Positions 8,582-57,450 of a DNA stretch of 64,000 nt are shown here, in pieces (the stretch's first letter is position 1; the number at the start of each line of letters is the position of its first letter). Below the pieces are notes generated by a model. The model saw only the letters and a list, made by a program, of their open reading frames with translations, did not search any database and had not been told where the DNA came from. This DNA comes from Elusimicrobiota bacterium (GTDB lineage Bacteria > Elusimicrobiota > Elusimicrobia > UBA1565 > UBA9628). The stretch lies in NCBI GenBank assembly GCA_027319565.1, contig DAHVNA010000001.1:114716-178715 (forward strand), read 5' to 3'. The translations under genes and the position numbers were made by a program.

Positions 8582-8585
8582 TTTT

Positions 8586-9175: not shown

Positions 9176-9177
9176 AC

Positions 9178-9894: not shown

Positions 9895-9904
9895 GGAGAC
9901 TATT

Positions 9905-11893: not shown

Positions 11894-11948
11894 AGGCCTT
11901 GACATATTCCGCAAACCCGTTATACTTCTAAAAGGGGTTAAAATTTAA

Positions 11949-13703: not shown

Positions 13704-13711
13704 GAGGCCTT

Positions 13712-15546: not shown

Positions 15547-15561
15547 GAAAGAAGAAAGCAA

Positions 15562-28483: not shown

Positions 28484-28488
28484 CGAAC

Positions 28489-28875: not shown

Positions 28876-28886
28876 TCTTAGGCCTC

Positions 28887-30767: not shown

Positions 30768-31912
30768 CAGAACCGAAGGCGCGTATTCTCATTGTCGATG
30801 ACGATCCCCATATCCGCGAATCTCTGTTGGATGTTCTGGAAGACGCCGGTTACGAGGTTTTTACGGCCTCCAGGGAGAAAGAGGCCTTGGACAAGGTTCA
30901 CTCGCATAGTTTTGACGTGATCTTGATGGATTATAATCTTCCGGATTCAACCGGAATCCAGGTGATCAAGAAAATCAAAAAAATTAGGCCGATTGATTCC
31001 CAAAGCCAGATATTGATGCTTACCGCGGATAAAAGCCAAGAGACGGCGGTCATGGCCATTCAGGAATCCGTGGCGGATTTTCTCGTCAAGCCGGTTGATG
31101 TCGATCGCCTTAAACGAGTCATTTCAAATTCCCTGGAAAAGCTTCGCTTGATTCGGGAAAACGAGAGAATAACGCTTCAGCTTAAGAAAAGCAACGAGGA
31201 ACTCGAGCATTTGGACCGGATGAAATCTAAATTTCTCTCAATGTCTTCGCATGATTTATCCAATGCCTTAATGGCTCTTCAGGCCAGTTTTGAACTTCTT
31301 TCTCAAACGATGAACCCCTCGGAAGAGCAGACAAAAAGAATGCTCGCTATTTCTTCCAGCATCAGCCAATTAACTCGCCTGACCGCCGATTTAGTCGACT
31401 GGGCGTCCATTGAAAGTGGAAAATTCAGAATTGAGCGGGAAATCTGCTCTCCAGAAACTCTGCTACGGGAAATCTTGCTGGGTTCTCAAGCTCGCGCGCA
31501 GGCGCGGGGAATTAAGTTTACGGAAAAAATAGAAAAATCCTTGCCCGATATTTATGCCGACAAGAGGCGTATTTCCCAGGTTCTTAATAACCTGCTTGAA
31601 AATGCCATTCGCTACACTTCCAAAGGCGGAGAAATTCTGGTCTATGCGATGAAACTCGCCAACGGCAATGCGGAAACCGCGATTCAATTTGGAGTTAAAG
31701 ACTCCGGAGATGGGATACCGCCAAGCGAACTCGGTAAAATCTTCCAAAGTTTTTATCAAGGCTCCGATTCCTCTAAAAGCGGACGCCTGGGGCTGGGATT
31801 GGCGACTTCTAAAGAAATTGTCGAGGCTCACGGCGGAAGGATCTGGGTTGAAAGCGAAGGAGTCGGGCGCGGCGCGACTTTCTTTTTTACGGTTCCCACC
31901 TCGAAAAAATGA
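30764..31912 (+). CDS. Hybrid response regulator-histidine kinase (REC + HisKA + HATPase_c), cytoplasmic.
   Basis: RILIVDDDPHIRESLLDVLEDAGYEV...VILMDYNLPDSTG. H-box SMSSHDLSNAL. HATPase boxes NLLENAIRYT, DSGDGIP and GRLGLGLATSKEIVEAHGGRIWVESEGVGRGATFFF. Confidence 0.85.
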   Translation: MTEPKARILIVDDDPHIRESLLDVLEDAGYEVFTASREKEALDKVHSHSFDVILMDYNLPDSTGIQVIKKIKKIRPIDSQSQILMLTADKSQETAVMAIQESVADFLVKPVDVDRLKRVISNSLEKLRLIRENERITLQLKKSNEELEHLDRMKSKFLSMSSHDLSNALMALQASFELLSQTMNPSEEQTKRMLAISSSISQLTRLTADLVDWASIESGKFRIEREICSPETLLREILLGSQARAQARGIKFTEKIEKSLPDIYADKRRISQVLNNLLENAIRYTSKGGEILVYAMKLANGNAETAIQFGVKDSGDGIPPSELGKIFQSFYQGSDSSKSGRLGLGLATSKEIVEAHGGRIWVESEGVGRGATFFFTVPTSKK

Positions 31913-39449: not shown

Positions 39450-39478
39450 TTGACAATGTCAGGGGGCGGGGCTAGACT
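39450..39478 (+). promoter_or_regulatory. Sigma70-like promoter candidate for the TPR gene and the Tol-like locus.
   Basis: TTGACA (39450-39455), a 17-nt spacer, then TAGACT (39473-39478). An SD-like GAAAGGAGG lies at 39522-39531. Confidence 0.4.
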
Positions 39479-39520: not shown

Positions 39521-42500
39521 TTGAAAGGAGGGGCTTTGGGCTTGCTTTGGTCGTTATTTTTGTGGGGGAATCAGCTTTGTTTTCCCCAGGCTGCGGCAAT
39601 CCCGCCGGAGATGACTCTCAACACCCAAGCTCAACAGCTTTATCTCTCCGCGGGAAATTTTTTTCAAACCCAAGATTACGCCCATGCCGCCGATCAATAC
39701 CAAGAATTCTTAAAACGCGATCGCGATCAACCCGATCGTCTTGAGGCCCAGATGATGCTGGCGGAAAGCCTTTACCGGCAAGGCATTGCGCAATTGTCTT
39801 TGTCTCCTAAGCGCGCGGCAAAGATTTTTAAGCAGGCGAAAAAGGCTTATAAGAAAGTGTCTCGGGACTCTCCAAGCGGGGACTATCTGGCGGAGAGCGC
39901 GCGGTTTCGAATCGGGGAAATGGCCTTTAACCTTGGCCAATATGACGAGGCCGTTTCGGATATGGAAAGTTTGGTTTCCGATTACCCTCTAGGCACGTTG
40001 AGAGGCGAAGCCCGGTTGCTTGAGGCCGAGGCCTTGATGTCTCAAAAACAGTTCTCAAAGGCGGAGAACTTGCTGGATGAGGCTTTAAAAGAACAACCCT
40101 CTTATGCCGATAATCCGAGACTCAAATTAGTGCGCGGGATCGCTCTTTTTGAAACGGGAAATCCTGCCGCTGCTCTGGCGTCTCTGAGCGGGCTTCAATC
40201 TCCGCTCGCGCTTTTATATTCCGCTCGAGCCAACATGAATCTGGAAAAGCCTTTAATCGCGGTTGAGAACCTTAAGACCCTGATCGCGGATTATCCTGAA
40301 GACCCGGAAGTTGAAATGAGCCGTTATCTGGTGGGGGAGGCTTTTTTCGAGGCCAGAGACTACACCTCGGCAGCCCAGGTCTTTAACCAGTTTCTGATGG
40401 ATTATCCGCGTAGCTCTTTGCGCGGGGCGGCGACTTATAAAATGGGCTTATGCAGTTATAACCTTAAAGATTATATGGCGGCGCGCGGAGACTTTGAGTC
40501 GGTTGAACAAATGAGTCCGCCTGGAGAATTCGCCGAGCCGAGCCTCTACATGATGGGCGAATCTTTTCTAAAGGAAGGAAACTATACCAAAGCCGGTTTT
40601 GATTATTCCGATTTATCCTCCGCTTATTCCAATCGCTTGGCCGGAACCGCTCAATTTAAGCTGGCTTGGACCCAATATAAGCGGCAGGAATATCCGGAGG
40701 CCCATGTCACGCTCAATTCGTTCATTGTCCGCTATTCATCGCATCCATTAGTTCCAGCGGCGGCGTATCTCAATGGAAATACTTTAGGAAGCGAGGGTAA
40801 ATATCGCCAGGCGGCTCACGCCTATCAACAATCCTTAGACTTGGCGGCTTCCAATCTCTATCCCTATCGGAGTTTAATTTTAAACCCGGCCTTGGCCATG
40901 CTTAGCCGCTCCTATTTGGAAGCCGGAGAATACGGCCATTTGATCTCCGGTTATCAATACGTCCTTAAGGAAAATGCCCCCACCCAGGATCCTTGGCGCG
41001 CGGCCGCTCTCCTTTATATAGCGGAGGGATATTACCGGCAGGGGCTTTATGATCAGTCTCTTTCGATTTACAAGGAAATCATCCATTCCTATCCTGCGAC
41101 TCCGGAATCCATTGTCGCAAAGGATGGAATCAGTTGGTGTCTTTTTAAACAAGGGCATTTTTCTCAATCTTATCAGAAGCGCGTTGAACTGGAGGCCTTG
41201 AAGAACGCGCCGGCGATTGCCCCGTCTAAGACCGTTGTCGTCAATGAAAATCCGGGCGCCGATTTGTTTTTAAACAACCAGTATGCCGAGGCGGTCACTC
41301 TTTTTAATCAGAAAAAATATGCCGACGCCTTGGACGCCTTTGAGCGGTTTGAAAAAGATTACGCCCAGGACCCGCGCGCGGCCGATGCCGCTTTGGAAGA
41401 GGGTTGGTGCTATTACCGCCTCAATTATTACGGTGACGCCGTTAAAACCTGGGAAAGGGTGGAAGCGAGTTATTCGTCTTCTGAAGCCGCCAAATCCGCG
41501 GCCTGGGCCACGGCCGACACTTATTTTAGAGCCGCTCAATACGACAAAGCCGTGGCGGCCTATCAACATATACTCCAAACCTATCCGGATGACGCCGCTT
41601 CTTCATATGCCCGGCTTCGCATCGCCCAAAGTTATTACAACGCGAAAAATATTCCCCAGGCCATCTCTGCGTTTGAGGATGTTTTGAATAATTCTCCTGG
41701 AGACAAGGAGGGTCAACAGGTTCTGGATTATTTAACGCAGATGCTTTATCAGCCCGAATCTAAAGACGCGGCCTTAAAGGCTCTTCAATCTTTGGCGAGC
41801 TCCCAATCTTCGAACTCTTTTGGAGCGAGAGCGGAACTGGGTTTGGGGCTTTATTTTTTCGAGACGGGAGATTATACCAGCGCGGTTCAAAACTTAGAGG
41901 AAGCGATCCCCAACCTTTCGCGGGACAAAGATATTCGCGACGCCCAGTATGATTTGGCCCAATCTTATTACGCCTTAAAGCGCTATGAGGATGCGGAAAG
42001 GGCTTATCAGCGCTTTACGGAAAACTATCCTGACGATTCGCGTCTGAGAGCGGCTTTGTTTCGCATGGGAACCTCGGCGTTCAATTTAAAGGATTTCGAA
42101 AGAGCGGCCGCGGCTTTCCATCAGTTGGCGGCGCAGTATCCAAAGTCTCATTACGCCGCCTTGGCCCTCTACAACTCTTCCTTGGCCTATCGAAAATTGG
42201 GCGATTGGGAATCGGCGGCCTTGGCCTTGAAAAATTATATCGCTCTTTATCCGCAGCAGGCTCAAAAATCAAGCGCGCCATCGGAACTGGCTTCCGTTTA
42301 CGAGGAACAACGAGACTATGGAAAAGCGATTAAGCAGCTGGAGTCCGAAAAGAGCTCTCTTAAAAGCGATGACCCTGTTTTCCTAGAGACCAGTCTTGAG
42401 ATCGCCAAGGATTACGCGGCGATGGGAGATGATGCCGATTCTCTGAAAGAATACCAAGCCATCGAGGCTAGCCCGCTTAAGAGTAATCCCTACCGTTTAA

Positions 42501-42727
42501 ACGCCTTGGCCGATTTGGGCCGCTTCTATGAAGATAAAAAAGAGTGGAGCCTTGCGGCAAAGACCTATGAGGAGTTGTCTTTGAGCACCAACGATCCCAG
42601 TTGGCGCGATCCCGCCAAAGCTCGCGCAGAAGCGGATCGCGAAAAAGTTTCCAAGACCGTTTCGGCTGATTCCAATCAGAATCAAGTTCAGAATTCTTCC
42701 GCGCCGGCGGGAGGAGGGGCGCAATGA
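39521..42727 (+). CDS. Very large TPR-repeat protein (CpoB/YbgF-like repeats), probably periplasmic.
   Basis: N-terminal hydrophobic signal-like segment. TPR-like repeats across 1068 aa (e.g. QAQMMLAESLYRQGI, AAYLNGNTLGSEGKYRQAAHAYQQSL, AQYDLAQSYYALKRYEDAERAYQRF). The start may lie at in-frame TTGs at 39536 or 39542, since the SD falls inside the annotated start. Confidence 0.75.
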   Translation: MKGGALGLLWSLFLWGNQLCFPQAAAIPPEMTLNTQAQQLYLSAGNFFQTQDYAHAADQYQEFLKRDRDQPDRLEAQMMLAESLYRQGIAQLSLSPKRAAKIFKQAKKAYKKVSRDSPSGDYLAESARFRIGEMAFNLGQYDEAVSDMESLVSDYPLGTLRGEARLLEAEALMSQKQFSKAENLLDEALKEQPSYADNPRLKLVRGIALFETGNPAAALASLSGLQSPLALLYSARANMNLEKPLIAVENLKTLIADYPEDPEVEMSRYLVGEAFFEARDYTSAAQVFNQFLMDYPRSSLRGAATYKMGLCSYNLKDYMAARGDFESVEQMSPPGEFAEPSLYMMGESFLKEGNYTKAGFDYSDLSSAYSNRLAGTAQFKLAWTQYKRQEYPEAHVTLNSFIVRYSSHPLVPAAAYLNGNTLGSEGKYRQAAHAYQQSLDLAASNLYPYRSLILNPALAMLSRSYLEAGEYGHLISGYQYVLKENAPTQDPWRAAALLYIAEGYYRQGLYDQSLSIYKEIIHSYPATPESIVAKDGISWCLFKQGHFSQSYQKRVELEALKNAPAIAPSKTVVVNENPGADLFLNNQYAEAVTLFNQKKYADALDAFERFEKDYAQDPRAADAALEEGWCYYRLNYYGDAVKTWERVEASYSSSEAAKSAAWATADTYFRAAQYDKAVAAYQHILQTYPDDAASSYARLRIAQSYYNAKNIPQAISAFEDVLNNSPGDKEGQQVLDYLTQMLYQPESKDAALKALQSLASSQSSNSFGARAELGLGLYFFETGDYTSAVQNLEEAIPNLSRDKDIRDAQYDLAQSYYALKRYEDAERAYQRFTENYPDDSRLRAALFRMGTSAFNLKDFERAAAAFHQLAAQYPKSHYAALALYNSSLAYRKLGDWESAALALKNYIALYPQQAQKSSAPSELASVYEEQRDYGKAIKQLESEKSSLKSDDPVFLETSLEIAKDYAAMGDDADSLKEYQAIEASPLKSNPYRLNALADLGRFYEDKKEWSLAAKTYEELSLSTNDPSWRDPAKARAEADREKVSKTVSADSNQNQVQNSSAPAGGGAQ

Positions 42728-42781
42728 TGAATGGACGGAATTTTATTTCTAGTGGAGTGGTTCATAAATCCATTTACAATC

Positions 42782-42855
42782 CGTCACCCCGGCAGGTCTT
42801 AAGCCGGGGTCCAGCCTCTTTGTGGGTTTGGATTCCGGCAACAGCCGGAATGACG
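42782..42855 (-). repeat. REP/MITE-like double-hairpin element, copy 2, in inverse orientation to copy 1. It lies in the 5' leader / N-terminal extension of the FlgD-Ig gene.
   Basis: The reverse complement reads CGTCATTCCGGC-TGTT-GCCGGAATCCAAACCCACAAAGAGGCTGG-ACCCCGGC-TTAAGACCT-GCCGGGGTGACG, the same architecture as copy 1 at 17452-17526. Confidence 0.7.
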
Positions 42856-45800
42856 AAAATGCAAAATGTAAGCAAGAATTGGAGACTCTACGCTAGGGGA
42901 AAATGGCTTGCCATTTTCTTCTTCTTGATCGCCTTTTTATGGCCAAGGAATCTTCATGCCAAATCATCTCCATTAGAGCCCCCCAGCCTGATTTTTTCGC
43001 CCGCTGGAAACGGATCTCGAAAAACTCTTTCTTTTGTCGTTAATCTGCCGGAGACCGCCGAAGTCTCTAGCTGGCGTTTTGAGATTCGAGAGAAGGGAAA
43101 CAAAGACCTTCCCGGCGCCCTTGTCAAAGCATTTTCCGGTGATGGACGCCCGCCTCAAAAGATTGTCTGGGATGGAAAAGACACCCAAAACCGGGTGGTC
43201 GAGGATGGAACTTATTATTATTCGTTGAGCCTTCAGACCCCGGCTGGAAATCAAGCCGCGATTCGCCTTTCTCCGGTGATTGTCGACCGCGTTCCTCCCA
43301 CTATTTCGGCCAAGGTCCATCCCAGAATTTTTTCTCCCAACGGTCTTAAGCCGGAGACCGTTTTTACTTTGAAAGCTTCCGATCAGTACGGAATTTATGA
43401 ATGGCTGCTTGAAATTAAAGGTTCCGATGGGGTGCCGGTCAAGTCTTGGATGGGAAAAGGGCGTCCGCCCGCGGCCGTGCGTTGGGATGGGAGAGGAGAT
43501 TTTAATGAAGACGTGCCGAACGGGACCTATACCTTTCAGCTCACGGTTGAGAACCTGGCTTCAAATCGCGCGGTCACGCCGCCCCAGACGGTGACGGTTA
43601 AAAGGCAAGGCGTGGTTTCAACCGTGGGAGTGACTCCGGACGTTTTTTCCCCGCATAAAGAGAAACCGATCGCGAGTTTTGATATTACCGGCGGCGATCC
43701 TTCCTCGGTTGAGCGTTGGGAGCTCAAAATTATCAACCAAGCCGGCAGGCCCGTCTTTTCTTTCAAAGGCAATGGGGCTCCACCCGCGCGTCTTGACTGG
43801 AATGGGGATATTTCTAAGGATAAGACCGCGCCTGACGGGGCTTATCAAGTTATCTTATATGAGACCGACAATGCCGGGAACACCGCCGCTTCCGCTCCGG
43901 AACCCCTCTATGTCGATACAAAGCCGCCTCTTTTGGAAGCGCGCCTGGAGCCGGATTTGTTGAGTCCGGGAAAACAGCGCGAAAATTCCCAAGGGATTTT
44001 TAAATTGCGCGCTGAGAGCCGATATCCGTTTAAATGGGCCCTTAAAATTTATACCGATGTCGGAGAACCGGTCAGAACTTGGAGCGGGAAAATGGGGTCA
44101 AGAGTCCCGAACCAAATTTTGTGGCACGGCAATAACGACTCCGGGCAGATTGTCACCGACGGGACCTATTCTTATTCCCTTTGGGCTTCTGATATCGCCG
44201 GAAATGAAGGGGAAACTCCGCGGCAAAAATTCGTGGTGAACACGACTCCCCCGGCTCTGTCTGTTTCAGCGGATCATGCCCTTTTTTCTCCCAATGGCGA
44301 CCCCACTCTGAGCCACGTCGTTTTTAGTTTGAGCGCCCAGGATGCCAGTCCCTTCGCGAGCTGGGCTCTTTTGATTAACGATTCAAGCGGCAATCTTGTT
44401 CGCGAATTCACCGGATCTCCGCTCAATATTCCGGAGAGCGTCTCATGGAACGGGAAAAGCAAAGACCGCGAACCGCTTCCGGACGGGACCTACTCCTATG
44501 CGCTCGAGGCGAAAGATATCGCGGGAAATTCCGCCAAGACTAGTCCCCAAAATATCGTTATTGGAGCGACCAAGCCCATTCCTCGGGTGTCTTCTTCTCT
44601 GGACGCTATCTCGCCCAATGCCGATGGATTTAAAGACACGACCGATTTCCATTTGAGCGTCAAATCCTTCAATCCGGTTGAAAAATGGTTTCTTAGGATT
44701 TTTGATGAAGACAAGGTCGCGCGCCGGACCTTTGAAGGGCAGGGAGACGTTCCCGGAACCATCCAATGGGGCGGCGAGGGAGACGATCAAAAAACGCTTC
44801 CGGACGGGAGATATTCTTATCAGCTGGAAGTGGTCGACGCCGCCGGAAACACCAGCAAGACCCGCCTTAAATCTATTTTGATCAACACAACGCCGCCCAC
44901 AATTAAAATTACCGCCGACCCTGCTCTTTTTTCGCCGAAACCGACGGCGCCTCATTTTAGCTCTTCGACCATGTTTGTCCTAGGCTATCAAGATGTCAGC
45001 CCGGTCATGAGATGGAAAGTGATCATTCAGGACCCGATGAAAAATAATGTTCGCGTTTTTTCCGGAAATTCTTCTTTTCCGCGGTCAATTTCCTGGTATG
45101 GGCGTTCCAGCTCCAGAAAGATTTTACCGGACGGGCCCTACACCTATACTCTTTTCGCGGAAGATGATGTTGGCAATAAGTCGACCACCTCCGAGCAGAT
45201 TTTGCGCTTGGACGGCTCTTCTCCCCAGGTGAGTTTGAGAGCGGACCCCACGCTTTTTTCGCCCGGGACGGGCTCTCAGAAAAACGAGACGACTCTATTG
45301 TTGGGATATAAGGCCAAGGCCGACATCTCTAAATGGAAATTGTCCATTGACTTAAAAAAGGGAGAAGTCGCGCGCGTTTTCTCGGGCCTTGGGCGTCCGC
45401 CGCAAAATATCCCATGGGACGGGAAAAACGCCTACGGGCGCATTCTTCCCGATGGGACTTACGACGCGTTTTTGAAAGTCATTGACGAAGTCGGCAACGA
45501 GGGGCTTAGCCCCGCCGCTAAAATCACGATCGACACCTCAAAACCAGTCGCCACTGTCGTCGCCCAAACCGAGCAGTTGGAAGACCTAAGCGTTCCTCTG
45601 ACCGTTACGAAAGACGCGGACAAGGATATCGTTATTTCCTTGGCCAGCGAGGTCCTTTTTGATAGCGGCAAGTCGACTTTAAAAGATGCGGCCGACAATA
45701 CCCTTTTAAGAGCCGCCTATCTTATTAAGCGTTATCCCCATCGCGCCGTTTTAATTAATGGGTATACCGACAATGTGCCAATCCATGACGCGTCGTTTAA

Positions 45801-46023
45801 AAACAACCAACAGCTTTCAAAAGCGCGGGCCGAGGCCGTAATGAAGTTCTTGGCCTTTAAGGCGAATATTCCCGCCTCTCGGATGAAAGCCCAGGGCTTT
45901 GGGGATAAAAATCCTATCGCCTCTAACGACGATCCCGAGGGCCGGCAAAAGAACCGCCGCGTGGAAATTGTTTTGACCAGCAATACCCATCGATCTCATG
46001 CGACTAAGGAGGAGAATCAATGA
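42850..46023 (+). CDS. Giant envelope protein with a signal peptide, about 8 tandem FlgD-Ig-like domains and a C-terminal OmpA_C peptidoglycan-binding domain (Pal-like anchor).
   Basis: Likely start MTKMQNVSKNWRLYARGKWLAIFFFLIAFLWPRNLHA (signal peptide). The ORF-track start at 42724 reads through the REP element. Repeats carry FSPNG..., W(D/N)G(K/R)..., PDGTY.Y and DxAGN motifs (e.g. IVWDGKDTQNRVVEDGTYYYSL; ILWHGNNDSGQIVTDGTYSYSLWASDIAGN). OmpA_C: LFDSGKSTLKDAADNTLLRAAYLIKRYPHRAVLINGYTDNVP...SKARAEAVMKFL...RRVEIVL. Confidence 0.75.
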   Translation: MTKMQNVSKNWRLYARGKWLAIFFFLIAFLWPRNLHAKSSPLEPPSLIFSPAGNGSRKTLSFVVNLPETAEVSSWRFEIREKGNKDLPGALVKAFSGDGRPPQKIVWDGKDTQNRVVEDGTYYYSLSLQTPAGNQAAIRLSPVIVDRVPPTISAKVHPRIFSPNGLKPETVFTLKASDQYGIYEWLLEIKGSDGVPVKSWMGKGRPPAAVRWDGRGDFNEDVPNGTYTFQLTVENLASNRAVTPPQTVTVKRQGVVSTVGVTPDVFSPHKEKPIASFDITGGDPSSVERWELKIINQAGRPVFSFKGNGAPPARLDWNGDISKDKTAPDGAYQVILYETDNAGNTAASAPEPLYVDTKPPLLEARLEPDLLSPGKQRENSQGIFKLRAESRYPFKWALKIYTDVGEPVRTWSGKMGSRVPNQILWHGNNDSGQIVTDGTYSYSLWASDIAGNEGETPRQKFVVNTTPPALSVSADHALFSPNGDPTLSHVVFSLSAQDASPFASWALLINDSSGNLVREFTGSPLNIPESVSWNGKSKDREPLPDGTYSYALEAKDIAGNSAKTSPQNIVIGATKPIPRVSSSLDAISPNADGFKDTTDFHLSVKSFNPVEKWFLRIFDEDKVARRTFEGQGDVPGTIQWGGEGDDQKTLPDGRYSYQLEVVDAAGNTSKTRLKSILINTTPPTIKITADPALFSPKPTAPHFSSSTMFVLGYQDVSPVMRWKVIIQDPMKNNVRVFSGNSSFPRSISWYGRSSSRKILPDGPYTYTLFAEDDVGNKSTTSEQILRLDGSSPQVSLRADPTLFSPGTGSQKNETTLLLGYKAKADISKWKLSIDLKKGEVARVFSGLGRPPQNIPWDGKNAYGRILPDGTYDAFLKVIDEVGNEGLSPAAKITIDTSKPVATVVAQTEQLEDLSVPLTVTKDADKDIVISLASEVLFDSGKSTLKDAADNTLLRAAYLIKRYPHRAVLINGYTDNVPIHDASFKNNQQLSKARAEAVMKFLAFKANIPASRMKAQGFGDKNPIASNDDPEGRQKNRRVEIVLTSNTHRSHATKEENQ

Positions 46024-46634
46024 TTCATATTAATTTTTTGGAAATTCTAAAAACGAGTTTTACCCTGGTCATATTGCTTTTTTGCTCCTTGGTGACCATG
46101 ACTTTCGCCATTGAGAGATGGTGGTATTACCGCTCGGTCAGAATCGACGTCGAAAAATTCATGACGGCAATCAAAGAATTTTTGGAGGCCCACAAACACG
46201 CGGAAGCCCTCAATCTCGCGTCGAATTCTCCGGGGCCTGTCGCGGCAATAGTCCGCATCGCCCTTTTAAATCGCAGTCGCCCTAAAAGCGAGGCCGCCGC
46301 CCTTTTAAGCGCCGCGCAGATTGATGAAAGGGGAAAACTGGAGCGTTATCTCGGCATTTTGGGAACCATGGGAAATACCGCGCCGTTTATTGGCCTCTTT
46401 GGAACCGTGGTGGGAATTATTAAGGCTTTTCATGATTTGGCTCTTTCCGGATCGGGAGGGCCTTCGGTCGTCGCTGCGGGAATCGCGGAAGCGCTGGTGG
46501 CGACGGCCAGCGGGCTTGCGGTCGCTATTCCATCGGCGATGCTCTATAACTATTTTGTCAAAAAGGTCAAGGATATCGCTTCTGACATGGAAGCTTCCTC
46601 GATTCGGATTCTAGTTTATTTGGGGCTTAGCTGA
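46020..46634 (+). CDS. MotA/TolQ/ExbB-family proton channel.
   Basis: Three TM segments. LGILGTMGNTAPFIGLFGTVVGIIKAF and GIAEALVATASGLAVAIPSAMLYNYF. Start overlaps the upstream stop. Confidence 0.85.
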   Translation: MIHINFLEILKTSFTLVILLFCSLVTMTFAIERWWYYRSVRIDVEKFMTAIKEFLEAHKHAEALNLASNSPGPVAAIVRIALLNRSRPKSEAAALLSAAQIDERGKLERYLGILGTMGNTAPFIGLFGTVVGIIKAFHDLALSGSGGPSVVAAGIAEALVATASGLAVAIPSAMLYNYFVKKVKDIASDMEASSIRILVYLGLS

Positions 46635-47050
46635 TGCAGACCGGTTCTTCAAACAACTCGATTATCACCGACATCAATGTAACTCCCTTGGTCGACGTCT
46701 GCTTGGTTTTAGTGATTATTTTCATGGTGGTAGCGCCGCTGGCGATGCAGGCTTCCATTGAAGTCGCTTCTACCCGGGTCGGAGCGCCCAAAGCTCGGGC
46801 GGCTTTGACCAAGAATGTCGACGTGGTTTTGGACGCGCGGGGAACGGTCACGATTAATGGAACTCCGGTGGCTTGGGAGAATCTGCCCCAGGCGTTGAGA
46901 AAGGCGATTTCCCGTAGCCAGGATCGCTTGGTCGGGCTTAAGGCTTCTCCCAAGGCGCCTTTAGGCAAGGTGGTTGAGATTTTAGATGATTCCAAACAGA
47001 ACGGCGCTAAAAAAGTAGCCTTGATCAATCCCAAAGAAGGAGGAAGTTGA
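46634..47050 (+). CDS. ExbD/TolR-family protein, paralogue 1.
   Basis: ITDINVTPLVDVCLVLVIIFMVVAPL is the ExbD/TolR TM. Periplasmic domain. Start overlaps the ExbB stop. Confidence 0.85.
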   Translation: MQTGSSNNSIITDINVTPLVDVCLVLVIIFMVVAPLAMQASIEVASTRVGAPKARAALTKNVDVVLDARGTVTINGTPVAWENLPQALRKAISRSQDRLVGLKASPKAPLGKVVEILDDSKQNGAKKVALINPKEGGS

Positions 47051-47469
47051 TGGCGATAGGGCAAGGAAAGTCGGGCGAGCCGATTACCTCGATTAACATC
47101 ACGCCCTTAGTGGATGTCAGCCTTGTTTTGGTCATTATTTTTATGGTCGCCGCGCCGCTTTTAACACAGCCGATTTTGCCGGTTCAGCTTCCTAAAGCCG
47201 TGACGGATGAGGGAAAGGAAAGAGAAAATATCACGATTACGATTACCAAGGACGGCCAATGGGCGCTCAATGCCGATCCGACGACTCCTGAAACTCTTCC
47301 CTCGGTTTTGCCCTCGCTTTTGGCGAAAAATAAAGATAAATACGTGATCATCCGGGCGGATGCCGATTCTCCCTATTCCTACACTTTGGAAGCGCTTAAA
47401 ATCGCGAAAGCGGCCGGGGCCAAGGATTATGCGGTGGCGACAGTCGAGAAAAAGAGAGTATCTCCGTGA
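47047..47469 (+). CDS. ExbD/TolR-family protein, paralogue 2.
   Basis: ITSINITPLVDVSLVLVIIFMVAAPL. Second adjacent ExbD paralogue. Start overlaps the upstream stop. Confidence 0.85.
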   Translation: MMAIGQGKSGEPITSINITPLVDVSLVLVIIFMVAAPLLTQPILPVQLPKAVTDEGKERENITITITKDGQWALNADPTTPETLPSVLPSLLAKNKDKYVIIRADADSPYSYTLEALKIAKAAGAKDYAVATVEKKRVSP

Positions 47470-48587
47470 GTAAGGATGCGACTAGGCTTGAGACTTCGGC
47501 GGGTTTAGCCGCCGCTATTCATGCTTCCCTTTTCGGGCTCTATCTTTTGCTCAAAGCAACCGCGCCTACCGAAGAGATGGTGAAGCTAACCCGGGTTGAT
47601 TTTATCGATGAAATTCCCCAAGCCGCGCCTACTACTTCTGCCAATCCCGGTCGGCTTGAACGCGCGCCCAAAAGCTTCAAGGATTTTCTTCATATGGCCC
47701 TTCCCTCGTTTCACGCTCCAAGCCCGCCCCAAGCCAAGTTGGAAGAAATGCAAACCAGCCCCGCTTTAAACTCGCCCAAAGAGACTTTGCCTTCTCCCCG
47801 TATCACGCTTAAAACCAGCGCTAATTCCGTTCATATGAATTTTCGCTTTGCGCCCGCTCATTTAAAATCGGCGGATTCGCATTTGTCGGATATCTCTTCC
47901 CCGCAAGCAGTTCCACAAGAAACGCCCCAAGACATGCCAAATTCAAAGCCGATTGCGTTAGAGGCGGTTGGAAAGGTCAAGGTTTCAGGGCAAATTCATT
48001 TTAATCAAGCGGCGCATTTTAAGAGTTCGGATCAAATACGAGATTTGCCTCAGGAAAATTTGGCGGCCTCGGGACCCGCGGCGCTGGAAGATTCTCAGCC
48101 CGGGGCGATTCAATTAAATTCCAGCTATCACGCGGCAAGCAGATCCGCCTTGCCTTCCGGCGGAGACTTGCCCATCGGCTATGATAAAGGAATTTCCTTG
48201 AAAGAGGGGGCGGTTCATCCCGCGGGAGCGAATTTGCCGCAAGCTTCTCTTGCGCCTGCCGCGACAAAACCGGGCAAGCTTAAAAGCGTCAATCATAAAG
48301 GCATGGAGATTAGCGGTCCCTTGGCGGACCGGAAGATTTTAAAAGCGGCGGCGCCGCGCTATCCCAATTGGGCGAAAAGCCAAGGAGTGGAAGCCGATGT
48401 CATCGTCCGTTTTTATGTTTCGCCCGAGGGGCGGGTTTTAGACCGAATGATTATCGAAAGGACCTCGGGATACCAAAGGCTTGATGAACTGTGCAAAAAA
48501 ACTCTCAAGAAAATGCTTTTTGCCCCGCTTGAAAAAGGCGATCAGGTCGAATGGGGGTATATCACCTTTCATTTCAAATTAAAATGA
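47466..48587 (+). CDS. TonB/TolA-like energy-transducing protein: N-terminal TM, long linker and TonB_C domain.
   Basis: TM LAAAIHASLFGLYLLL. C-terminal VEADVIVRFYVSPEGRVLDRMIIERTSGYQRLDELCKKTLKKMLFAPLEKGDQVEWGYITFHFKL matches TonB_C. Confidence 0.7.
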   Translation: MSKDATRLETSAGLAAAIHASLFGLYLLLKATAPTEEMVKLTRVDFIDEIPQAAPTTSANPGRLERAPKSFKDFLHMALPSFHAPSPPQAKLEEMQTSPALNSPKETLPSPRITLKTSANSVHMNFRFAPAHLKSADSHLSDISSPQAVPQETPQDMPNSKPIALEAVGKVKVSGQIHFNQAAHFKSSDQIRDLPQENLAASGPAALEDSQPGAIQLNSSYHAASRSALPSGGDLPIGYDKGISLKEGAVHPAGANLPQASLAPAATKPGKLKSVNHKGMEISGPLADRKILKAAAPRYPNWAKSQGVEADVIVRFYVSPEGRVLDRMIIERTSGYQRLDELCKKTLKKMLFAPLEKGDQVEWGYITFHFKLK

Positions 48588-48596
48588 GATAAAGCC

Positions 48597-49196
48597 ATGG
48601 CTCAAGAAAGCTCGCAATTGACCTTAAACCGCCGAAGGCGCTATTTTATCGATACGGAAATTCAATTGCCGCTGACCCTGGGTCTTATTTTTATCGCGAC
48701 GGTTGAGGGAGTTTTCGTGGGATGGGGGCTCAGCCGGATTATTCATCTTGCCTTTGATTGGCAGAATGCTCGCCAGATTTTAGAATTCTTCGCTTTTCTT
48801 GTCATGACTTTCTTGCCGATGGTCCTCATTAATTTTTGGCTGAGCGCATGGTTTACCCATCGGATGATTGGGCCGCTCTCAAGGGCGCGCAAAGCGCTGT
48901 CTTCCGTTGTAGAGGGAAATTTGGAATGCGAGATTATTCCCAGGGAAGGCGACTTTCTCCGCCATTATCTGGAAGACGTCAACTCGGCCGTGCGGACCTT
49001 AAAACGCCTCATTTACCGAGATCATCAATACGTTCAGGAAACAGTCGAACTCTTAAACCAGTGCCGCGATAAAATCGAGAGTAGCGGCCTTCCCAGCGAG
49101 GCGAAAAACGATCTTCAAAAACTCATTTCCCAAGCCAAAAGCCGCCTGAGTATTGTCAATGTCCATTTCGTGCGTCACCGAGGGGATAAGACATGA
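48597..49196 (+). CDS. Membrane protein with two TM segments and a HAMP-like domain. No output domain.
   Basis: TM1 LTLGLIFIATVEGVFVGWGL. TM2 FAFLVMTFLPMVLINFWLSAWF. The HAMP-like helix pair follows: HRMIGPLSRARKALSSVVEGNLE. Confidence 0.45.
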   Translation: MAQESSQLTLNRRRRYFIDTEIQLPLTLGLIFIATVEGVFVGWGLSRIIHLAFDWQNARQILEFFAFLVMTFLPMVLINFWLSAWFTHRMIGPLSRARKALSSVVEGNLECEIIPREGDFLRHYLEDVNSAVRTLKRLIYRDHQYVQETVELLNQCRDKIESSGLPSEAKNDLQKLISQAKSRLSIVNVHFVRHRGDKT

Positions 49197-49573
49197 AAAA
49201 AACAGATGAAGCGGTCTTGATCGTAGATGATGACGATGGCATGCGGGAGTTGGCCGAAGTGATGTGTAAGCAGATGAAGCTTAAAACTTTCTCCGCTTCG
49301 GACACCGTCGCCGCCCGGCGCTATCTTGAAGAAAATATCCCGCGCTTGATTCTTCTCGACATCATGATGCCGGACGGAAACGGCATCGAGTTTTGTCAGT
49401 GGATGCGTTCGCAAGAGGAGTTTAAAAATGTTTCAATTATCGTAACAAGCGCTTTAAAAGAAGAAGAAACGATTCAAGACGCTTTTAAAGTCGGCGCCAA
49501 TGACTTTTTGTCAAAGCCCTTCGAGGTGGTGATTTTTATGGAGAAACTGGGACGTTGGATTAAAGATAAATGA
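49193..49573 (+). CDS. Single-domain CheY-like response regulator receiver.
   Basis: VLIVDDDDGMRELAEV...LILLDIMMPDGNGIEFCQWMR...DFLSKPF. Confidence 0.8.
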   Translation: MKKTDEAVLIVDDDDGMRELAEVMCKQMKLKTFSASDTVAARRYLEENIPRLILLDIMMPDGNGIEFCQWMRSQEEFKNVSIIVTSALKEEETIQDAFKVGANDFLSKPFEVVIFMEKLGRWIKDK

Positions 49574-50544
49574 GAGCGGCTATTTTAGCTTGTTTGTTTT
49601 TTGGAGGCGTTCTCTTTGCCGCGGCGGATTCTCAAAACGGCGGGAATGCCGCGAGCGGGCAAGGAGTGTTGCCGGAGGTCCTCATCGAAGCCGAGCATAA
49701 CAAGCCTTTGCCGTTGTCCAAACCACCCTTGAGTTTTGATGTCAAGGAAGACCAGCCAATCGAAAAGATTCTCAAACAAACGGACCGTTCTTTGATGAAT
49801 CGTCTTCCTTCTCAAATACTAAAATCAAACGTCTTTAAGCCAGAGATTTCAGTCAGCTCTCGGGTTATTATTCCGTCCCAGATTTGGATTGTCCGGCCTT
49901 GGGCGGGAGATTTCGCGCATGTTTTTCACCCGCAAAATATCCTATCAAGCATTCACGCCTTTGAAGATAATCGAAACGAGCGCAAGAAGGCAGTTTGGGA
50001 AATGGACGTGGTCGATGGAGAGGGAAAATCAATCCAGCATTTTTCCGGTTCCGGAGTCGTGCCCAAGCGGATACCCTTTGACGGGAAAGACAAGGATGGA
50101 AAATGGATCGAAGTCGGAGAGACCTACATGGGAGTTCTCAAAAACACCGATTCTCAAGGCAGGATTCATACCGCCTACGGCCGTCCTTTTAAAATAGCGG
50201 GGCTCAGCCTCAAGAATTCTTCCTCTTTTTCTATCGACTTGGACGCGGGAGTTCTTTTTTCCACCTCTTCTGCCGTTCTTGAGTTTTCTCCCTTCGGGCG
50301 GGAACTGATTGTAGAAGCCGCCCAGTTGCTGCAAAGATATTATCCCGGCTTTTCGGTTGCGGCATCTCTTTCGAGCAAACGCTTAAATTCCCAAGAACTT
50401 AAAAAAGCCGTTTCCCTGTGCGCCGAGGAAATCGCAAATAGACTCATTATTTCCTCGTCTAATATCCGAAAGAGTTGGAACCGTCAAGATGCGGGAGGAG
50501 AGGGAGTTCTCGCCATTTCAGTCCAATCCCAGGCTCGGCCGTAA
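49570..50544 (+). CDS. Secreted hypothetical protein with one FlgD-Ig-like domain.
   Basis: Signal peptide MRAAILACLFFGGVLFAAA. VWEMDVVDGEGKSIQHFSGSGVVPKRIPFDGKDKDGKWIEVGETYMGVLKNTDSQGR matches the W..G...P..i.fDGkd..G..v..G.Y pattern. Confidence 0.4.
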   Translation: MRAAILACLFFGGVLFAAADSQNGGNAASGQGVLPEVLIEAEHNKPLPLSKPPLSFDVKEDQPIEKILKQTDRSLMNRLPSQILKSNVFKPEISVSSRVIIPSQIWIVRPWAGDFAHVFHPQNILSSIHAFEDNRNERKKAVWEMDVVDGEGKSIQHFSGSGVVPKRIPFDGKDKDGKWIEVGETYMGVLKNTDSQGRIHTAYGRPFKIAGLSLKNSSSFSIDLDAGVLFSTSSAVLEFSPFGRELIVEAAQLLQRYYPGFSVAASLSSKRLNSQELKKAVSLCAEEIANRLIISSSNIRKSWNRQDAGGEGVLAISVQSQARP

Positions 50545-54167: not shown

Positions 54168-55232
54168 ATGATGAAGGAAAAACTCTTCAAATTCCGAAAA
54201 TTCCGATGGGGAATTGGGTTTCTCGCGTTATGGATGGGGTTTCCCGTTTGGGCTCTTGAGTCTTCCGCGCGCTTTGAAGAGCCGGTTCCAATTAATTTAC
54301 ATTCTTTTTCCAATGCCGTCCAACCCAATGATGTTTTGCCCGATCTGGGAAATTCTCCGAAAGAGATTTCTTTCCCAAGCGAAATTTTTCATAGAAAAGA
54401 GCGCCTTTTAAGTCCTCAGGTTCCTTTAGCTAGACCCCATGATCTAGCAGACAACGATCCTGCTCGGGGCTTTGTGCCATTTGAGAGAGTTGTCGAAAAT
54501 TCCCCAAAATCCGTATTTCAGACGAAAACCGCTTCTCGCCTCAATCAGGAGTCGTTTAAAAGTCCTGTTAGCGGCGGGGTTCTTTTTGACGGCGCTCAAG
54601 AAAAAGAGGGGCCGTGGAAATACGATTTGGAGGGAGCGTTGTGGTTTTCCGGTCAACAGGCGCAACTGATAGGTTCCGGTTCTTATGGGCGCGTTTTTGC
54701 GCATCCCGCTAATCAAGACTGGGTCGTTAAAGTGATTCACGGCAGCAGGATTTACGGGGCGACCGCGTTTTATGAACATCCGGAATTTTCCAATCTTGAG
54801 AAATTGTCTCAAGCCCATCTTTCTCCGCGCCCGATAGATACGGGTCTCATAAATGGCATTCCCTATATTATTTCAGAGCGGGTGCATGGCGCGACCTTAG
54901 GAGACATCATTGGCGAGAAAAAATTTGGCATTAGGGAGTTAAAATTATTGCGGCAGATGTTTAACTCTCTTTTAAAGAGCCGGTTTTCCATCGTCGATCT
55001 AACCCCCAGCAATGTCATGTTGGGGCATACGGCGTCTAATCCAGAACCCCAAGCCTATATTATTGACGCGGGGCTTTTAACTTCGATTAGCGTTTTTGCT
55101 AATCCTTTTATTGATATCCAAGATTTGGTGAAAGATTGCAACGATTTGCTACGCCGATCAGGGAGCGTTCGAAAAATCGAGTTTGCGCGCCGGGAGATTG
55201 GTCATAAAGCCGCGCTTTTTTTCTCGCGTTAA
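54168..55232 (+). CDS. Signal-peptide-bearing protein with a C-terminal protein-kinase-like (PKL) fold.
   Basis: Signal/TM FRWGIGFLALWMGFPVWALESS. Kinase-like elements: Gly loop LIGSGSYGRVF, beta3 Lys WVVKVIH, hinge ISERVHGATLGD, catalytic-loop-like IVDLTPSNVML and DFG-like YIIDAGL. Confidence 0.4.
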   Translation: MMKEKLFKFRKFRWGIGFLALWMGFPVWALESSARFEEPVPINLHSFSNAVQPNDVLPDLGNSPKEISFPSEIFHRKERLLSPQVPLARPHDLADNDPARGFVPFERVVENSPKSVFQTKTASRLNQESFKSPVSGGVLFDGAQEKEGPWKYDLEGALWFSGQQAQLIGSGSYGRVFAHPANQDWVVKVIHGSRIYGATAFYEHPEFSNLEKLSQAHLSPRPIDTGLINGIPYIISERVHGATLGDIIGEKKFGIRELKLLRQMFNSLLKSRFSIVDLTPSNVMLGHTASNPEPQAYIIDAGLLTSISVFANPFIDIQDLVKDCNDLLRRSGSVRKIEFARREIGHKAALFFSR

Positions 55233-55236
55233 TTTA

Positions 55237-57450
55237 ATGAAGATATCTGCTCAAATTCTGTGGAGCCTTTTTCTTTTGATTTCTGCTCCCTTTTCTTATG
55301 CCGCTTCCGGCTGGGTTGAGGCGGATCCTGCGGGAGGCTTTTCAAAATATAACCCGGCGACCGTCGACCGGATTGAGTTTGGGAATCAATTTCAGAATCA
55401 GGGAATGGATCAATGGTGCGATCGATTCCCTCTCATCGTGCCCCTCAGTCAAGACTTTGTCAACGGTTTGGGGCCGGGAAGTTTGTTGGTCGGGGGAACT
55501 TTTTCGGGAACTAGACAATTTCTCCGCTATCCCGATGGCAGTCTTGCTCTCAACGATCAATTGGAAATTAAATTTCAAAGCGGATATGCGATGACCGCCG
55601 TCAAGAGCGCGGCAGGCATTTCTCAGAGGGCTTTAGGGGTTTACGCGGGGGTTTCCGTCGATGGGCAGTCGATTGTCACCCGTCCGCTTCACACCGCTGA
55701 CTCTTGCAGCCAGGTCAAACGCCTTCTCAACGTGCTTGACTTTAAAACCGTTCTCCCGCTCAATGCCAAGAGAATTTCAAAAATGGAAGTGGGGGAATTG
55801 TGGGAAATTCCGCTGGTCTATCAGATTTCTTTTGAGCCTTTGGACGCGGCCCAGGTCCTGGAAACTCCGGGGTCTTTTACGCCTTTTTCCGCTTATTTCG
55901 CGATAGGCTTGTCTAAAACCGCGGACCCCACCGTGACTCTTTTTAGAAAATCTTCGCACGATTTGCGCCTCAAAATCCATTTCGATCAATTTAAGACCGT
56001 CAGCGCTTCCGGCGGAGCGGTCGTAGGGCCGATTCCAGCCACCGATATTGGAACTCCGGGAATTGAGTCGCTTTTATCGAACATGCTTCCGAATCTTATC
56101 TCGAATCCCGCGCTTAAACTTTTAACGCGAGAGGTGGATGATTATCTCGCGGCCCAGATTGCGGTTTTAGTCTCTCAAGAGCGCGGCGGGCAAATTTTAC
56201 TCGAATACCGCTTGGATCCCGCCAATCAAAAACAGATGGAAGAACTCGCCAAGCTTTTGAAAGGCGATTTGAGCGTTCTTTCAGCGATGAAAAATCTGTT
56301 GGTCGACTGGAGGGGACGAGAAAACAAAGATATCGAAAAAACCCTCAACGCTTTAAGGCAAAGGCATTTGGAACATTTGCGCGTTTCCGAATCCTTGTCC
56401 GGTTTTGATCATTATCGACAGAGTCTTAAAACGCTCAATTTTTCGGTTCCGTTTCTTTTTAATTACAGCGGCTCGGTCGCGCGGAACACCGATCATTATG
56501 TGATCGCAGCGCCCCGAGGTCTTGAGTTCTATTCCTATAAGTCTCAAAAACAATCGAATTGGGGATTTTTAAAGCCCCCGATTGTGGGCTCTTCGTTGAG
56601 GCATAATCAGAGTCAAAGCGTGCAATCCCTTGTTTTTCTCAATGCGCGCCACGCTTCTAAAAATAAGGATGAGCAATTAATAGTTTATAACCGGGAAACC
56701 GGCATTTTGCGCTTGGGAGATATCCAGCAGGAGTTGTCTCGAATTGATTCTTTGATTGCCTCTATCGGGTCTCTTCAAAATTTTCCGCCTGAGGCGGAAA
56801 TTCCCAAAAAACTCAAGGATCTTGTTTCCGGTTCCGAACATAAAGGCTATGCGGAGTTAAGCGTGATTTTGACTCCAAAAGCGATTCATCAAATTATTTC
56901 TTCTTCCTCGGAATCTGTTCTCCGTGCCTTTGAGCTTTCGCTTTCCGGCGGCAACCGCGCGGTCTTTGACTATGCCCTCAAATATTCAAGATTATCGGCC
57001 GATGGCAGCCTGCATTTTAAGCGTTCTTTTGTCCGACACTTGGACGAACTGAATTTGCCGGATCCAACCCGAAAAAGGCCGGAAATGGTTTTATCCAAGG
57101 CCGGGGTTTTATTTCACGAAGTCGAGCTTCTAATTTCTGATTTAAAGAGAGCGAAAAACATTCCTTCTCCGGAACAGCAATCAAAAGAGATTCTTAAGAT
57201 ATTGGACGGCAGTTCCCATTGGTTTGAGTCTTACTCTGGATATGGCCGGGTGGTTGAAGTTCTGTTGCGTCTTGCGCCGCGAGACGGGGTGGCCGCCGAT
57301 TTGTTTTTCCATGTAGACAAAAAGAAAACCGATTCCTCAAACCCGAGCAAGCGCTATTTATTTAGCCCAGATATTCTCAGCCAGGCTTCTCTGCGCGCGA
57401 TTAGCGCCGTTGAGCGTTCCTTTATGCCGCCGACTTCGCTCAACGATTGA
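55237..57450 (+). CDS. Large secreted hypothetical protein (738 aa).
   Basis: Signal peptide MKISAQILWSLFLLISAPFSYA|AS at an in-frame ATG with good context. The ORF-track start at 55183 overlaps the upstream gene. No recognisable domain. Confidence 0.4.
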   Translation: MKISAQILWSLFLLISAPFSYAASGWVEADPAGGFSKYNPATVDRIEFGNQFQNQGMDQWCDRFPLIVPLSQDFVNGLGPGSLLVGGTFSGTRQFLRYPDGSLALNDQLEIKFQSGYAMTAVKSAAGISQRALGVYAGVSVDGQSIVTRPLHTADSCSQVKRLLNVLDFKTVLPLNAKRISKMEVGELWEIPLVYQISFEPLDAAQVLETPGSFTPFSAYFAIGLSKTADPTVTLFRKSSHDLRLKIHFDQFKTVSASGGAVVGPIPATDIGTPGIESLLSNMLPNLISNPALKLLTREVDDYLAAQIAVLVSQERGGQILLEYRLDPANQKQMEELAKLLKGDLSVLSAMKNLLVDWRGRENKDIEKTLNALRQRHLEHLRVSESLSGFDHYRQSLKTLNFSVPFLFNYSGSVARNTDHYVIAAPRGLEFYSYKSQKQSNWGFLKPPIVGSSLRHNQSQSVQSLVFLNARHASKNKDEQLIVYNRETGILRLGDIQQELSRIDSLIASIGSLQNFPPEAEIPKKLKDLVSGSEHKGYAELSVILTPKAIHQIISSSSESVLRAFELSLSGGNRAVFDYALKYSRLSADGSLHFKRSFVRHLDELNLPDPTRKRPEMVLSKAGVLFHEVELLISDLKRAKNIPSPEQQSKEILKILDGSSHWFESYSGYGRVVEVLLRLAPRDGVAADLFFHVDKKKTDSSNPSKRYLFSPDILSQASLRAISAVERSFMPPTSLND

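Follow-up and report, generated by a model that had tools for sequence, protein, structure and literature searches.

A nine-gene operon conserved across Elusimicrobiota occupies positions 39521–50544 of the stretch of DNA analyzed here, 64,000 nt of an Elusimicrobiota bacterium genome (GenBank assembly GCA_027319565.1, contig DAHVNA010000001.1, positions 114,716–178,715 of the forward strand; hereafter, the window). It encodes an ExbB/TolQ-type channel subunit with two different ExbD/TolR paralogues, a transmembrane (TM) force transducer ending in a TonB_C domain, a giant secreted TPR protein, a periplasmic rod of eight FlgD-type Ig repeats capped by an OmpA_C domain, a small HAMP-like membrane protein (p199), a receiver-only response regulator and a secreted protein of 324 aa (p324). 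The cluster is best placed in the Ton/Tol family of envelope force-transduction systems, and we consider it very probable that it constitutes a distinct conserved system. The further proposal that it is a dedicated envelope system of the Ton/Tol type, driven by the proton motive force (PMF), separate from canonical Tol-Pal and working by the specific mechanism outlined below, we hold with moderate confidence. Its function would most likely be Tol-like and exerted on peptidoglycan-bound partners. Full-text literature searches for the gene combination gave no description and returned only a 2025 Molecular Biology and Evolution survey in which the cluster does not appear, in line with an earlier note, made from the sequence alone, that had proposed an undescribed machine at this position.

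The layout of the cluster is compact. All nine open reading frames (ORFs) run codirectionally on the + strand and seven of the eight junctions overlap by 1–4 nt, the remaining one being a 9-nt gap; the genes therefore look translationally coupled. The coordinates and the mostly overlapping arrangement given in the earlier note held on reanalysis. Domains were assigned by Pfam and NCBIfam hidden Markov model (HMM) searches, which directly recovered the TPR, FlgD_ig, OmpA, MotA_ExbB, ExbD, TonB_C and Response_reg domains that the note had listed.

To assess conservation, we compared contigs encoding ExbB homologues 51–57% identical to the window copy. The full set of nine families, similar in size and with wholly different flanks, recurs in L086 (Endomicrobiales), L088/L089, L090/L091 and L006. 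A reduced core comprising TPR-ExbB-ExbD-ExbD-TonB_C-p324, without the HAMP and receiver genes, is present in the Elusimicrobial loci L007, L008, L016 and L018 and in the loci L009, L096 and L097 of candidate division WOR-3; in L055, which contains the same core families, the TonB_C gene instead precedes the TPR gene. The synteny check suggested in the earlier note thus came out positively, with nine families co-occurring amid changed flanks and a core shared by two phyla. ExbB orthologues are 50–97% identical and those with a named source derive from Elusimicrobiota or Endomicrobiales, except for one labeled ‘bacterium’. In L086, the TPR gene has an extra HTH_17 plus receiver gene directly 5′ of it, and the cluster is followed by a gene for a Y1 transposase of the IS200 type (3250–3831 and 14566–15261). 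A GldG-like ABC transporter was also considered as a cluster component. The divergent genes upstream in the window indeed encode ABC_tran, ABC2_membrane, ABC_transp_aux and DUF4340 proteins (Pfam), as expected from the GldA/F/G-like transporter named in the earlier note, but their linkage to the cluster was rejected, as no such neighbor exists in L086, L088 or L090.

The motor genes comprise one ExbB/TolQ-type proton-channel subunit (46020–46634, +; 204 aa; MotA_ExbB, 109 bits) and two adjacent ExbD/TolR paralogues, ExbD1 (46634–47050, +; 138 aa; ExbD, 85 bits) and ExbD2 (47047 or, from an alternative ATG, 47050 to 47469, +; 139–140 aa; ExbD, 99 bits), confirming the composition read earlier from the sequence. 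Both ExbD proteins carry the TM aspartate (PLVDV in ExbD1) and are 36% identical to each other; in all related loci, they appear as orthologous first and second copies, respectively. Scores against the equivalog models stayed below the cutoffs, with TolQ matched only slightly better than ExbB. ExbB reached 129 bits with the TolQ model TIGR02796 (cutoff, 221) and 96 bits with the ExbB model TIGR02797 (cutoff, 206), and its best Protein Data Bank (PDB) matches were TolQ at 70 bits versus ExbB at 60 bits. The two ExbDs scored 74 and 84 bits with TolR TIGR02801 (cutoff, 127) and 57 and 66 bits with ExbD TIGR02803 (cutoff, 153).

Phylogenetic placement, which the earlier note had asked for, was addressed with a neighbor-joining (NJ) tree of 86 ExbB/TolQ homologues labeled by gene context; the tree lacks AglR and is indicative only. 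A genome scan with the ExbB alignment returned, among the matches listed, mostly non-Elusimicrobial TolQ/ExbB sequences, which served as outgroups. TolQ genes neighboring TolB and Pal form one clade with Escherichia coli TolQ (86% bootstrap), whereas the ExbBs of p324-bearing loci group outside this clade with bootstrap values below 60%, and bootstrap support within their group is confined to the Elusimicrobial subclades. The ExbBs of p324-bearing loci are also separate from a clade rich in Myxococcota and from one of Acidobacteriota with two to three ExbD genes. A further clade is formed by loci in Elusimicrobial metagenome-assembled genomes (MAGs) that combine ExbB and a single ExbD with a TonB_2 protein of 241 aa. 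The placement is therefore outside the TolB/Pal-linked TolQ clade and apart from the Myxococcota-rich clade, at deep nodes that are weak. Inside the p324-locus group sits L019 (2–9117; Candidatus Eiseniibacteriota), which has no detectable p324 and in which TPR-ExbB-ExbD-ExbD is followed by proteins of 366, 776 and 709 aa without a Pfam family; a motor of this type may here serve another uncharacterized output module.

The force transducer (47466–48587, +) was predicted earlier as a TM protein with a TonB_C domain, and its C terminus matched TIGR01352 at 50.7 bits, above the cutoff of 27.1. Pfam TonB_C scored 42 bits versus 22 bits for the TolA-type TonB_2. A cytoplasmic N terminus of ~10 residues precedes a TM helix with an invariant histidine (H19), found within an S-x3-H motif in most orthologues, an arrangement shared with TonB and TolA, and with alanine replacing serine in the window copy. 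Between this helix and TonB_C extends a disordered linker of ~260 aa containing the motifs F[LI]KMALP, right after the helix, and EEVGxxRV, further on, both conserved from Elusimicrobia to WOR-3.

These features raise the question of an ordinary Ton system, in which ExbB-ExbD-ExbD-TonB would energize TonB-dependent transporters (TBDTs) encoded elsewhere and the TPR, Ig-OmpA and p324 proteins would be accessory or unrelated neighbors. The TonB_C and TIGR01352 scores and the occurrence of two to three ExbD genes in Ton-like loci of other phyla fit this explanation; the cluster also has in common with Ton systems the conserved TM aspartate and histidine residues and a partner motif resembling a TonB box (see below). 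We nevertheless regard it as improbable. The partners stay with the motor across two phyla despite complete flank turnover, no Plug/TonB_dep_Rec gene occurs within 10 kb in any locus examined, ExbB and ExbD score far under the respective equivalog cutoffs and the box-like motif resides on the coencoded p324. Of the Ton hallmarks tested, the cluster showed only one, a single-pass inner-membrane protein that ends in the TonB C-terminal domain.

The last gene of the cluster encodes p324 (49570–50544, +), which the earlier note had called a secreted FlgD-Ig protein. The window copy has no Pfam match, and the assignment was borne out indirectly: homologues, including those of WOR-3, carry FlgD_ig; an HMM built from the rod repeats matches p324 with E = 3e-8; phmmer connects it to the rod with E = 2e-14; and a predicted model contains an FlgD-like Ig domain (aa ~129–205) followed by a degenerate OmpA/MotB-like domain (aa ~211–320). 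This last domain has lost the peptidoglycan-binding residues that the rod retains in its OmpA_C domain. The N terminus consists of a signal peptide and a disordered region. Within the latter, a few to ~50 residues past the signal peptide, p324 proteins contain a motif, [PG]-E-[VE]-[VLI]-I-x-[AG]-E, present in the window copy as LPEVLIEAE (aa 34–42; 49669–49695, +). E36, I39 and E42 are invariant in 17 Elusimicrobial and WOR-3 sequences that are otherwise ~20% identical. TonB boxes and the TolA-binding N terminus of TolB both engage their partners by β-strand augmentation, and the p324 motif resembles such boxes, as a comparison with the mature N terminus of E. coli TolB, EVRIVIDSG, illustrates. 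Apart from L055, every related locus containing both has the p324 gene directly 3′ of the TonB_C gene; in the window, the two are separated by the HAMP and receiver genes. This adjacency, the invariant motif, its likeness to TolB and TonB boxes and the features of the transducer suggest p324 as an adaptor that would be captured and pulled by the TonB_C protein.

Upstream of the motor genes are the two largest proteins. The TPR protein (39521–42727, +; 1068 aa), correctly described earlier as all-TPR and CpoB/YbgF-like, matched TIGR02795 (YbgF) in eight stretches with 274.9 bits against a cutoff of 90.1, a score summed over tandem modules, and the YfiO/BamD model in seven stretches. The full-length CpoB model PRK10803, in contrast, reached 69 bits against a cutoff of 383. 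Stretch counts vary with the threshold, and the agreement between eight TPR modules and eight Ig repeats, which might hint at their pairing, is treated as a coincidence without explanation. While the gene caller placed the start at ATG 39611, a TTG at 39521 yields a signal-peptide-like N terminus without a lipobox. Orthologues measure 993–1150 aa in all Elusimicrobial loci and 818 aa in WOR-3, with YbgF as the best match in every case.

For the rod protein (42724–46023, +), Pfam reported FlgD_ig (128 bits), CHU_C (110 bits) and also Big, together with OmpA (67.6 bits at aa 978–1078) within an OmpA_C domain spanning aa ~960–1085 that retains the peptidoglycan-binding motifs TD...N and LSxxRA. 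The earlier note had estimated ~1080 aa and about eight FlgD-Ig domains ahead of OmpA_C; the domains stood, the ORF size was corrected to 1099 aa and the HMM built from the protein’s own repeats delimited exactly eight Ig repeats (aa 90–949). Translation probably starts near M43; the protein has a type I signal peptide, no lipobox and no β-barrel. The same repeat HMM counted eight Ig domains in all four divergent nine-gene lineages. Most repeats are orthologous by position, the best partner being the same-position repeat for seven of eight versus L086 and eight of eight versus L088. The number of eight repeats is therefore old and conserved.

Several of these components invite comparison with Tol-Pal. 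Like the latter, the cluster combines an ExbB/TolQ–ExbD/TolR motor with a single-pass transducer bearing a histidine in its TM helix, includes in its operon a TPR protein of the CpoB type together with a peptidoglycan binder of the OmpA_C kind, and encodes a periplasmic partner whose N terminus has an acidic/hydrophobic strand motif comparable to the TolA-binding box of TolB. It could accordingly be read as the phylum’s own highly diverged Tol-Pal orthologue, with p324 standing in for TolB and the Ig-OmpA protein for Pal, a reading also favored by TolQ, TolR and YbgF as the best family models and TolQ as the best PDB match. Against this, the cluster has two ExbD proteins where Tol-Pal has a single TolR, a C-terminal transducer domain of the TonB_C and not the TolA type, no β-propeller TolB, no Pal lipoprotein in place of its 1099-aa non-lipoprotein with eight Ig repeats, a TPR protein arranged in tandem modules and approximately four times as large as CpoB (263-position model), and an additional HAMP protein and receiver. 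The cluster departs from Tol-Pal in its TolQ/TolR equivalog scores, in the position of its ExbB outside the TolB/Pal-linked TolQ clade, in TolB and in Pal as a lipoprotein.

Searches with E. coli proteins gave the same picture. As the earlier note had stated, no TolB was found in the window, where phmmer with E. coli TolB and Pal detected no homologue of either; phmmer found no TolB in the related nine-gene loci, and tblastn with TolB, Pal and TolA gave no match in seven Elusimicrobial loci. Another locus, L039, had a tolQRA-like appearance, but its contig shows no TolB downstream. Elusimicrobium minutum is reported to contain a canonical tol-pal with TolB, a CpoB that is a lipoprotein and a short TolA of 244 aa rich in proline (Williams-Jones et al. 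2025, PMC12204202). Because of this operon and the separate ExbB-ExbD-TonB_2 clade in Elusimicrobial MAGs, the cluster looks like a system additional to canonical Tol-Pal, and its identity with the phylum’s Tol-Pal is highly improbable. The earlier note had reasoned that a canonical tol-pal elsewhere would reduce the cluster to an ordinary Ton paralogue; such an operon is reported in E. minutum, yet the ordinary Ton paralogue is not supported.

The note had seen a greater resemblance to the Myxococcus AglRQS/Glt gliding motor than to Tol-Pal. The Agl-Glt core complex consists of AglR, AglQ, AglS, GltG, GltD, GltE and GltC, with GltG providing a TM helix and TonB_C and GltD being a secreted TPR protein of ~1200 aa around which the GltG linker is modeled to wrap (PMC3169522, PMC11761067). 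The cluster shares with this complex the combination of one TolQ-like channel subunit and two distinct TolR-like ones, a transducer in which a long disordered linker joins the TM helix to TonB_C, and a secreted TPR protein in the size range of ~1000–1200 aa; its response regulator is reminiscent of regulated motility. On this basis, the cluster could be imagined as related to the AglRQS-GltG-GltD core and as carrying cargo, or the cell itself, along the envelope in gliding or surface transport. Specific components, however, did not follow: the GltC model NF033756 scored 25 bits against a cutoff of 450 and the AgmX/PglI tail model NF033768 18 bits against 40; the transducer has no cytoplasmic FHA or ZnR/GYF domain and a cytoplasmic tail of only ~10 aa; no GltA/B/H/K-type barrel or other Glt outer-membrane protein, adhesin or MglA/AglZ/GltI cytoplasmic platform occurs in any locus; Ig-OmpA, p324, HAMP and receiver proteins are without Glt counterparts; and in the NJ tree, which lacks AglR and has weak deep nodes, the ExbBs stand away from the clade rich in Myxococcota. 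One ExbB with two ExbDs is also not diagnostic of Agl, as it occurs in many unrelated loci such as those of Acidobacteriota with two to three ExbD genes. The resemblance is, in our analysis, real for the architecture only, with membership failing on every specific component tested, and we judge an Agl/Glt-like surface machine very unlikely.

A similar gene order is known from clusters of the Planctomycetota–Verrucomicrobiota–Chlamydiota (PVC) group, in which TPR-TolQ-2xTolR-vWA arrangements contain two heterologous TolR-like genes (Williams-Jones et al. 2025, PMC12204202). These PVC and Bacteroidota vWA clusters agree with ours in the succession of a TPR gene, one TolQ-like and two different TolR-like genes and a single-pass transducer. 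The system described here differs from them in its TonB_C-ended transducer, the extra Ig/OmpA partners, the signaling pair and the phyla in which it occurs.

Reduced-core versions pointed to yet another type of machinery. In L018 and WOR-3, the 8xIg-OmpA rod is replaced by a FadL/UPF0164-like barrel whose C terminus carries an FlgD_ig domain, accompanied by one or two proteins (557–1838 aa) with an FlgD_ig/CHU_C domain at the extreme C terminus. Large proteins of this kind, with no other recognizable domain, head the cluster beside the barrel in L018 (66–5582), L009 (648–2327) and L096 (2176–3849). The system might thus energize the sorting or secretion of FlgD_ig/CHU_C-tagged proteins as an analogue of the type IX secretion system (T9SS), made up of a motor and of TPR, OmpA and barrel proteins resembling PorW, PorE and PorV, respectively. 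Consistent with this idea, the rod repeats match CHU_C at 110 bits, the OmpA_C protein has non-OmpA periplasmic domains as in PorE and the large TPR proteins give subthreshold PorW/SprE scores; the FadL-like barrel and the β-sandwich tags belong exclusively to the WOR-3 and other Elusimicrobial versions. Other observations speak against it. The motor is of the ExbBD-TonB rather than GldLM type, and no SprA/Sov, PorK, PorN or GldL/M homologue was found among the Pfam and NCBIfam matches of the cluster or any related locus. PorW/SprE scores of 58–118 bits lie below the cutoff of 250 and resemble typical TPR cross-matches; PorE reached 51 bits against 600 in L018. The Ig domains of the nine-gene version form tandem repeats inside the protein and are not C-terminal tags; such C-terminal domains are not enriched in the window, where the sole other match of the repeat HMM is weak, internal and located in a second OmpA_C protein (E = 4e-4). 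A role as a sorting energizer consequently appears to us improbable as well.

The two genes that distinguish the nine-gene version encode putative signaling proteins. p199 (48597–49196, +; 199 aa) has two TM helices only ~18 residues apart, with no sensory loop, followed by a HAMP-looking segment and a helical tail; it has no kinase domain. The window copy has no Pfam HAMP match even at E ≤ 10, and its profile hit only an insignificant LapB helix in the PDB. An exhaustive search collected 338 family representatives, mostly of 180–215 aa, and 39 of 61 full-length members matched Pfam HAMP (best E = 2e-12); the designation as a HAMP-only membrane protein in the earlier note is thus right by family, with the window copy below threshold. 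The adjacent receiver (49193–49573, +; 126 aa; Response_reg, 91 bits), likewise recognized earlier as CheY-like, has an intact phosphoacceptor pocket, with D13, D14, D56 and K108 invariant in five orthologues. Among the loci examined, p199 is confined to the nine-gene clade and always adjoins the receiver, including in L090/L091, where the pair is relocated between ExbB and ExbD. Sequence features suggest that p199 and the receiver most likely gate the motor output in answer to a kinase encoded elsewhere. In the window, a two-component block at 27659–33975 (+) comprises a regulator of the OmpR type, a stand-alone receiver, a histidine kinase with dCache and HAMP domains and a receiver-kinase hybrid, followed by a 688-aa protein with ankyrin repeats and a caspase domain (Peptidase_C14); this block could be the phosphoryl source for the orphan receiver of the cluster. 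Separately, a distant p199 relative in L094 (P0172, 26% identical; 8001–9950) is encoded directly upstream of an NtrC-type receiver-sigma54 activator, and a small HAMP membrane protein with a response regulator may be a recurrent pair beyond the cluster.

From the observed gene set, domains, synteny and motif conservation, we infer the protein contacts and physiological role of a Ton/Tol-type envelope system as follows. In the inner membrane, an ExbB pentamer would enclose an ExbD1/ExbD2 heterodimer; this 5:2 stoichiometry is suggested by solved TolQR and ExbBD motors and by the conserved pair of distinct ExbD paralogues, and AglR5-AglQ-AglS has been modeled as a similarly heterodimer-plugged pentamer (PMC11761067). 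The TonB_C protein would dock on ExbB through its histidine-bearing TM helix and cross the periplasm with its disordered linker, which might wrap the TPR protein in the manner predicted for GltG and GltD (PMC11761067). Its TonB_C domain would grip the E-V-x-I-x-x-E motif of p324 by β-strand augmentation, giving p324 a TolB-like role. Through its Ig domain and an OmpA-like domain predicted not to bind peptidoglycan, p324 would associate with the 8xIg-OmpA_C rod, its large paralogue anchored to peptidoglycan, while the CpoB-like TPR protein of ~1000 aa could serve as a periplasmic scaffold or shaft. Motor work would load, release or move the peptidoglycan-bound partners, pointing to Tol-Pal-like tethering or envelope remodeling rather than nutrient import. 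In the nine-gene clade, the 2TM-HAMP protein and the phosphorylatable receiver would add two-component control, with the kinase located elsewhere.

Several points weigh against this mechanism. None of the nine cluster proteins has a lipobox or β-barrel that would link this version to the outer membrane. The p324 model has a pLDDT score of 63 and its N-terminal 113 residues are unmodeled. The function ascribed to the box-like motif derives from its resemblance to known TonB and TolB boxes, and a TonB-type TonB_C domain could also serve TBDTs encoded elsewhere. The NJ tree has weak deep nodes, a sample biased by the search motifs and a single bona fide Ton reference.

A more far-reaching version of the proposal, which we consider unlikely, envisages a class of signal-gated periplasmic machine not recognized before, in which a 5:2 ExbB-ExbD1/ExbD2 rotary motor, switched by the phosphorylated receiver via the HAMP protein as adaptor, pulls a TolB-like Ig/OmpA adaptor and so drives the TPR shaft and the 8-Ig rod, which is fixed in length and anchored to peptidoglycan. 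In WOR-3 and other Elusimicrobia, the same motor would drive the FadL-like barrel with its C-terminal domain (CTD)-tagged proteins. The system would then be an ExbBD-TonB-powered counterpart of T9SS-like sorting or Glt-like transport in phyla that have neither.

Ion-driven 5:2 motors, such as MotAB, ExbBD, TolQR, GldLM, AglRQS and ZorAB, are increasingly seen as general devices for delivering energy to the outer envelope, and each new output module widens the picture of what these motors can do. In the present case, p324 with its coencoded box-like motif offers a testable TonB_C-partner pair outside the TBDT/TolB paradigm, combined with a length-conserved Ig rod anchored to peptidoglycan. The phosphorelay pair inside a Ton/Tol-type operon would, if its suggested role is true, be a rare instance of signal-controlled Ton/Tol motor output. 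For the poorly studied Elusimicrobiota and WOR-3, p324 and the TPR protein provide a marker set for the system. The cluster also bears on the evolution of Tol-Pal, as CpoB-like, OmpA_C and TolB-box-like elements are assembled differently here.

Scans for promoters and terminators gave background levels, except for one good −35/−10 match, TTGACA-17-TAGACT, in the divergent intergenic region 5′ of the first gene (39450–39478, +; 10 of 12 consensus positions). This promoter-like site is a consensus match only, and the regional count of such sites does not exceed the shuffled expectation. Elsewhere in the window, in the region 5152–18201 (+), the second OmpA_C protein (5152–6978, +; 608 aa), which carries the weak Ig-repeat HMM match, lies upstream of a type II secretion/type IV pilus-like cluster with a secretin (9905–11893), a T2SSE ATPase (11949–13703), T2SSF (13712–14935) and several small ORFs. 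This region is preceded by an SLT_2 lytic transglycosylase gene (1854–2762, −) and a gene for a 746-aa protein that fuses a Wzy_C O-antigen-ligase-like domain to TPR repeats (2824–5064, +). Downstream of the nine-gene operon, two ORFs of 354 and 755 aa (54168–57450, +) encode proteins without a Pfam family above threshold.

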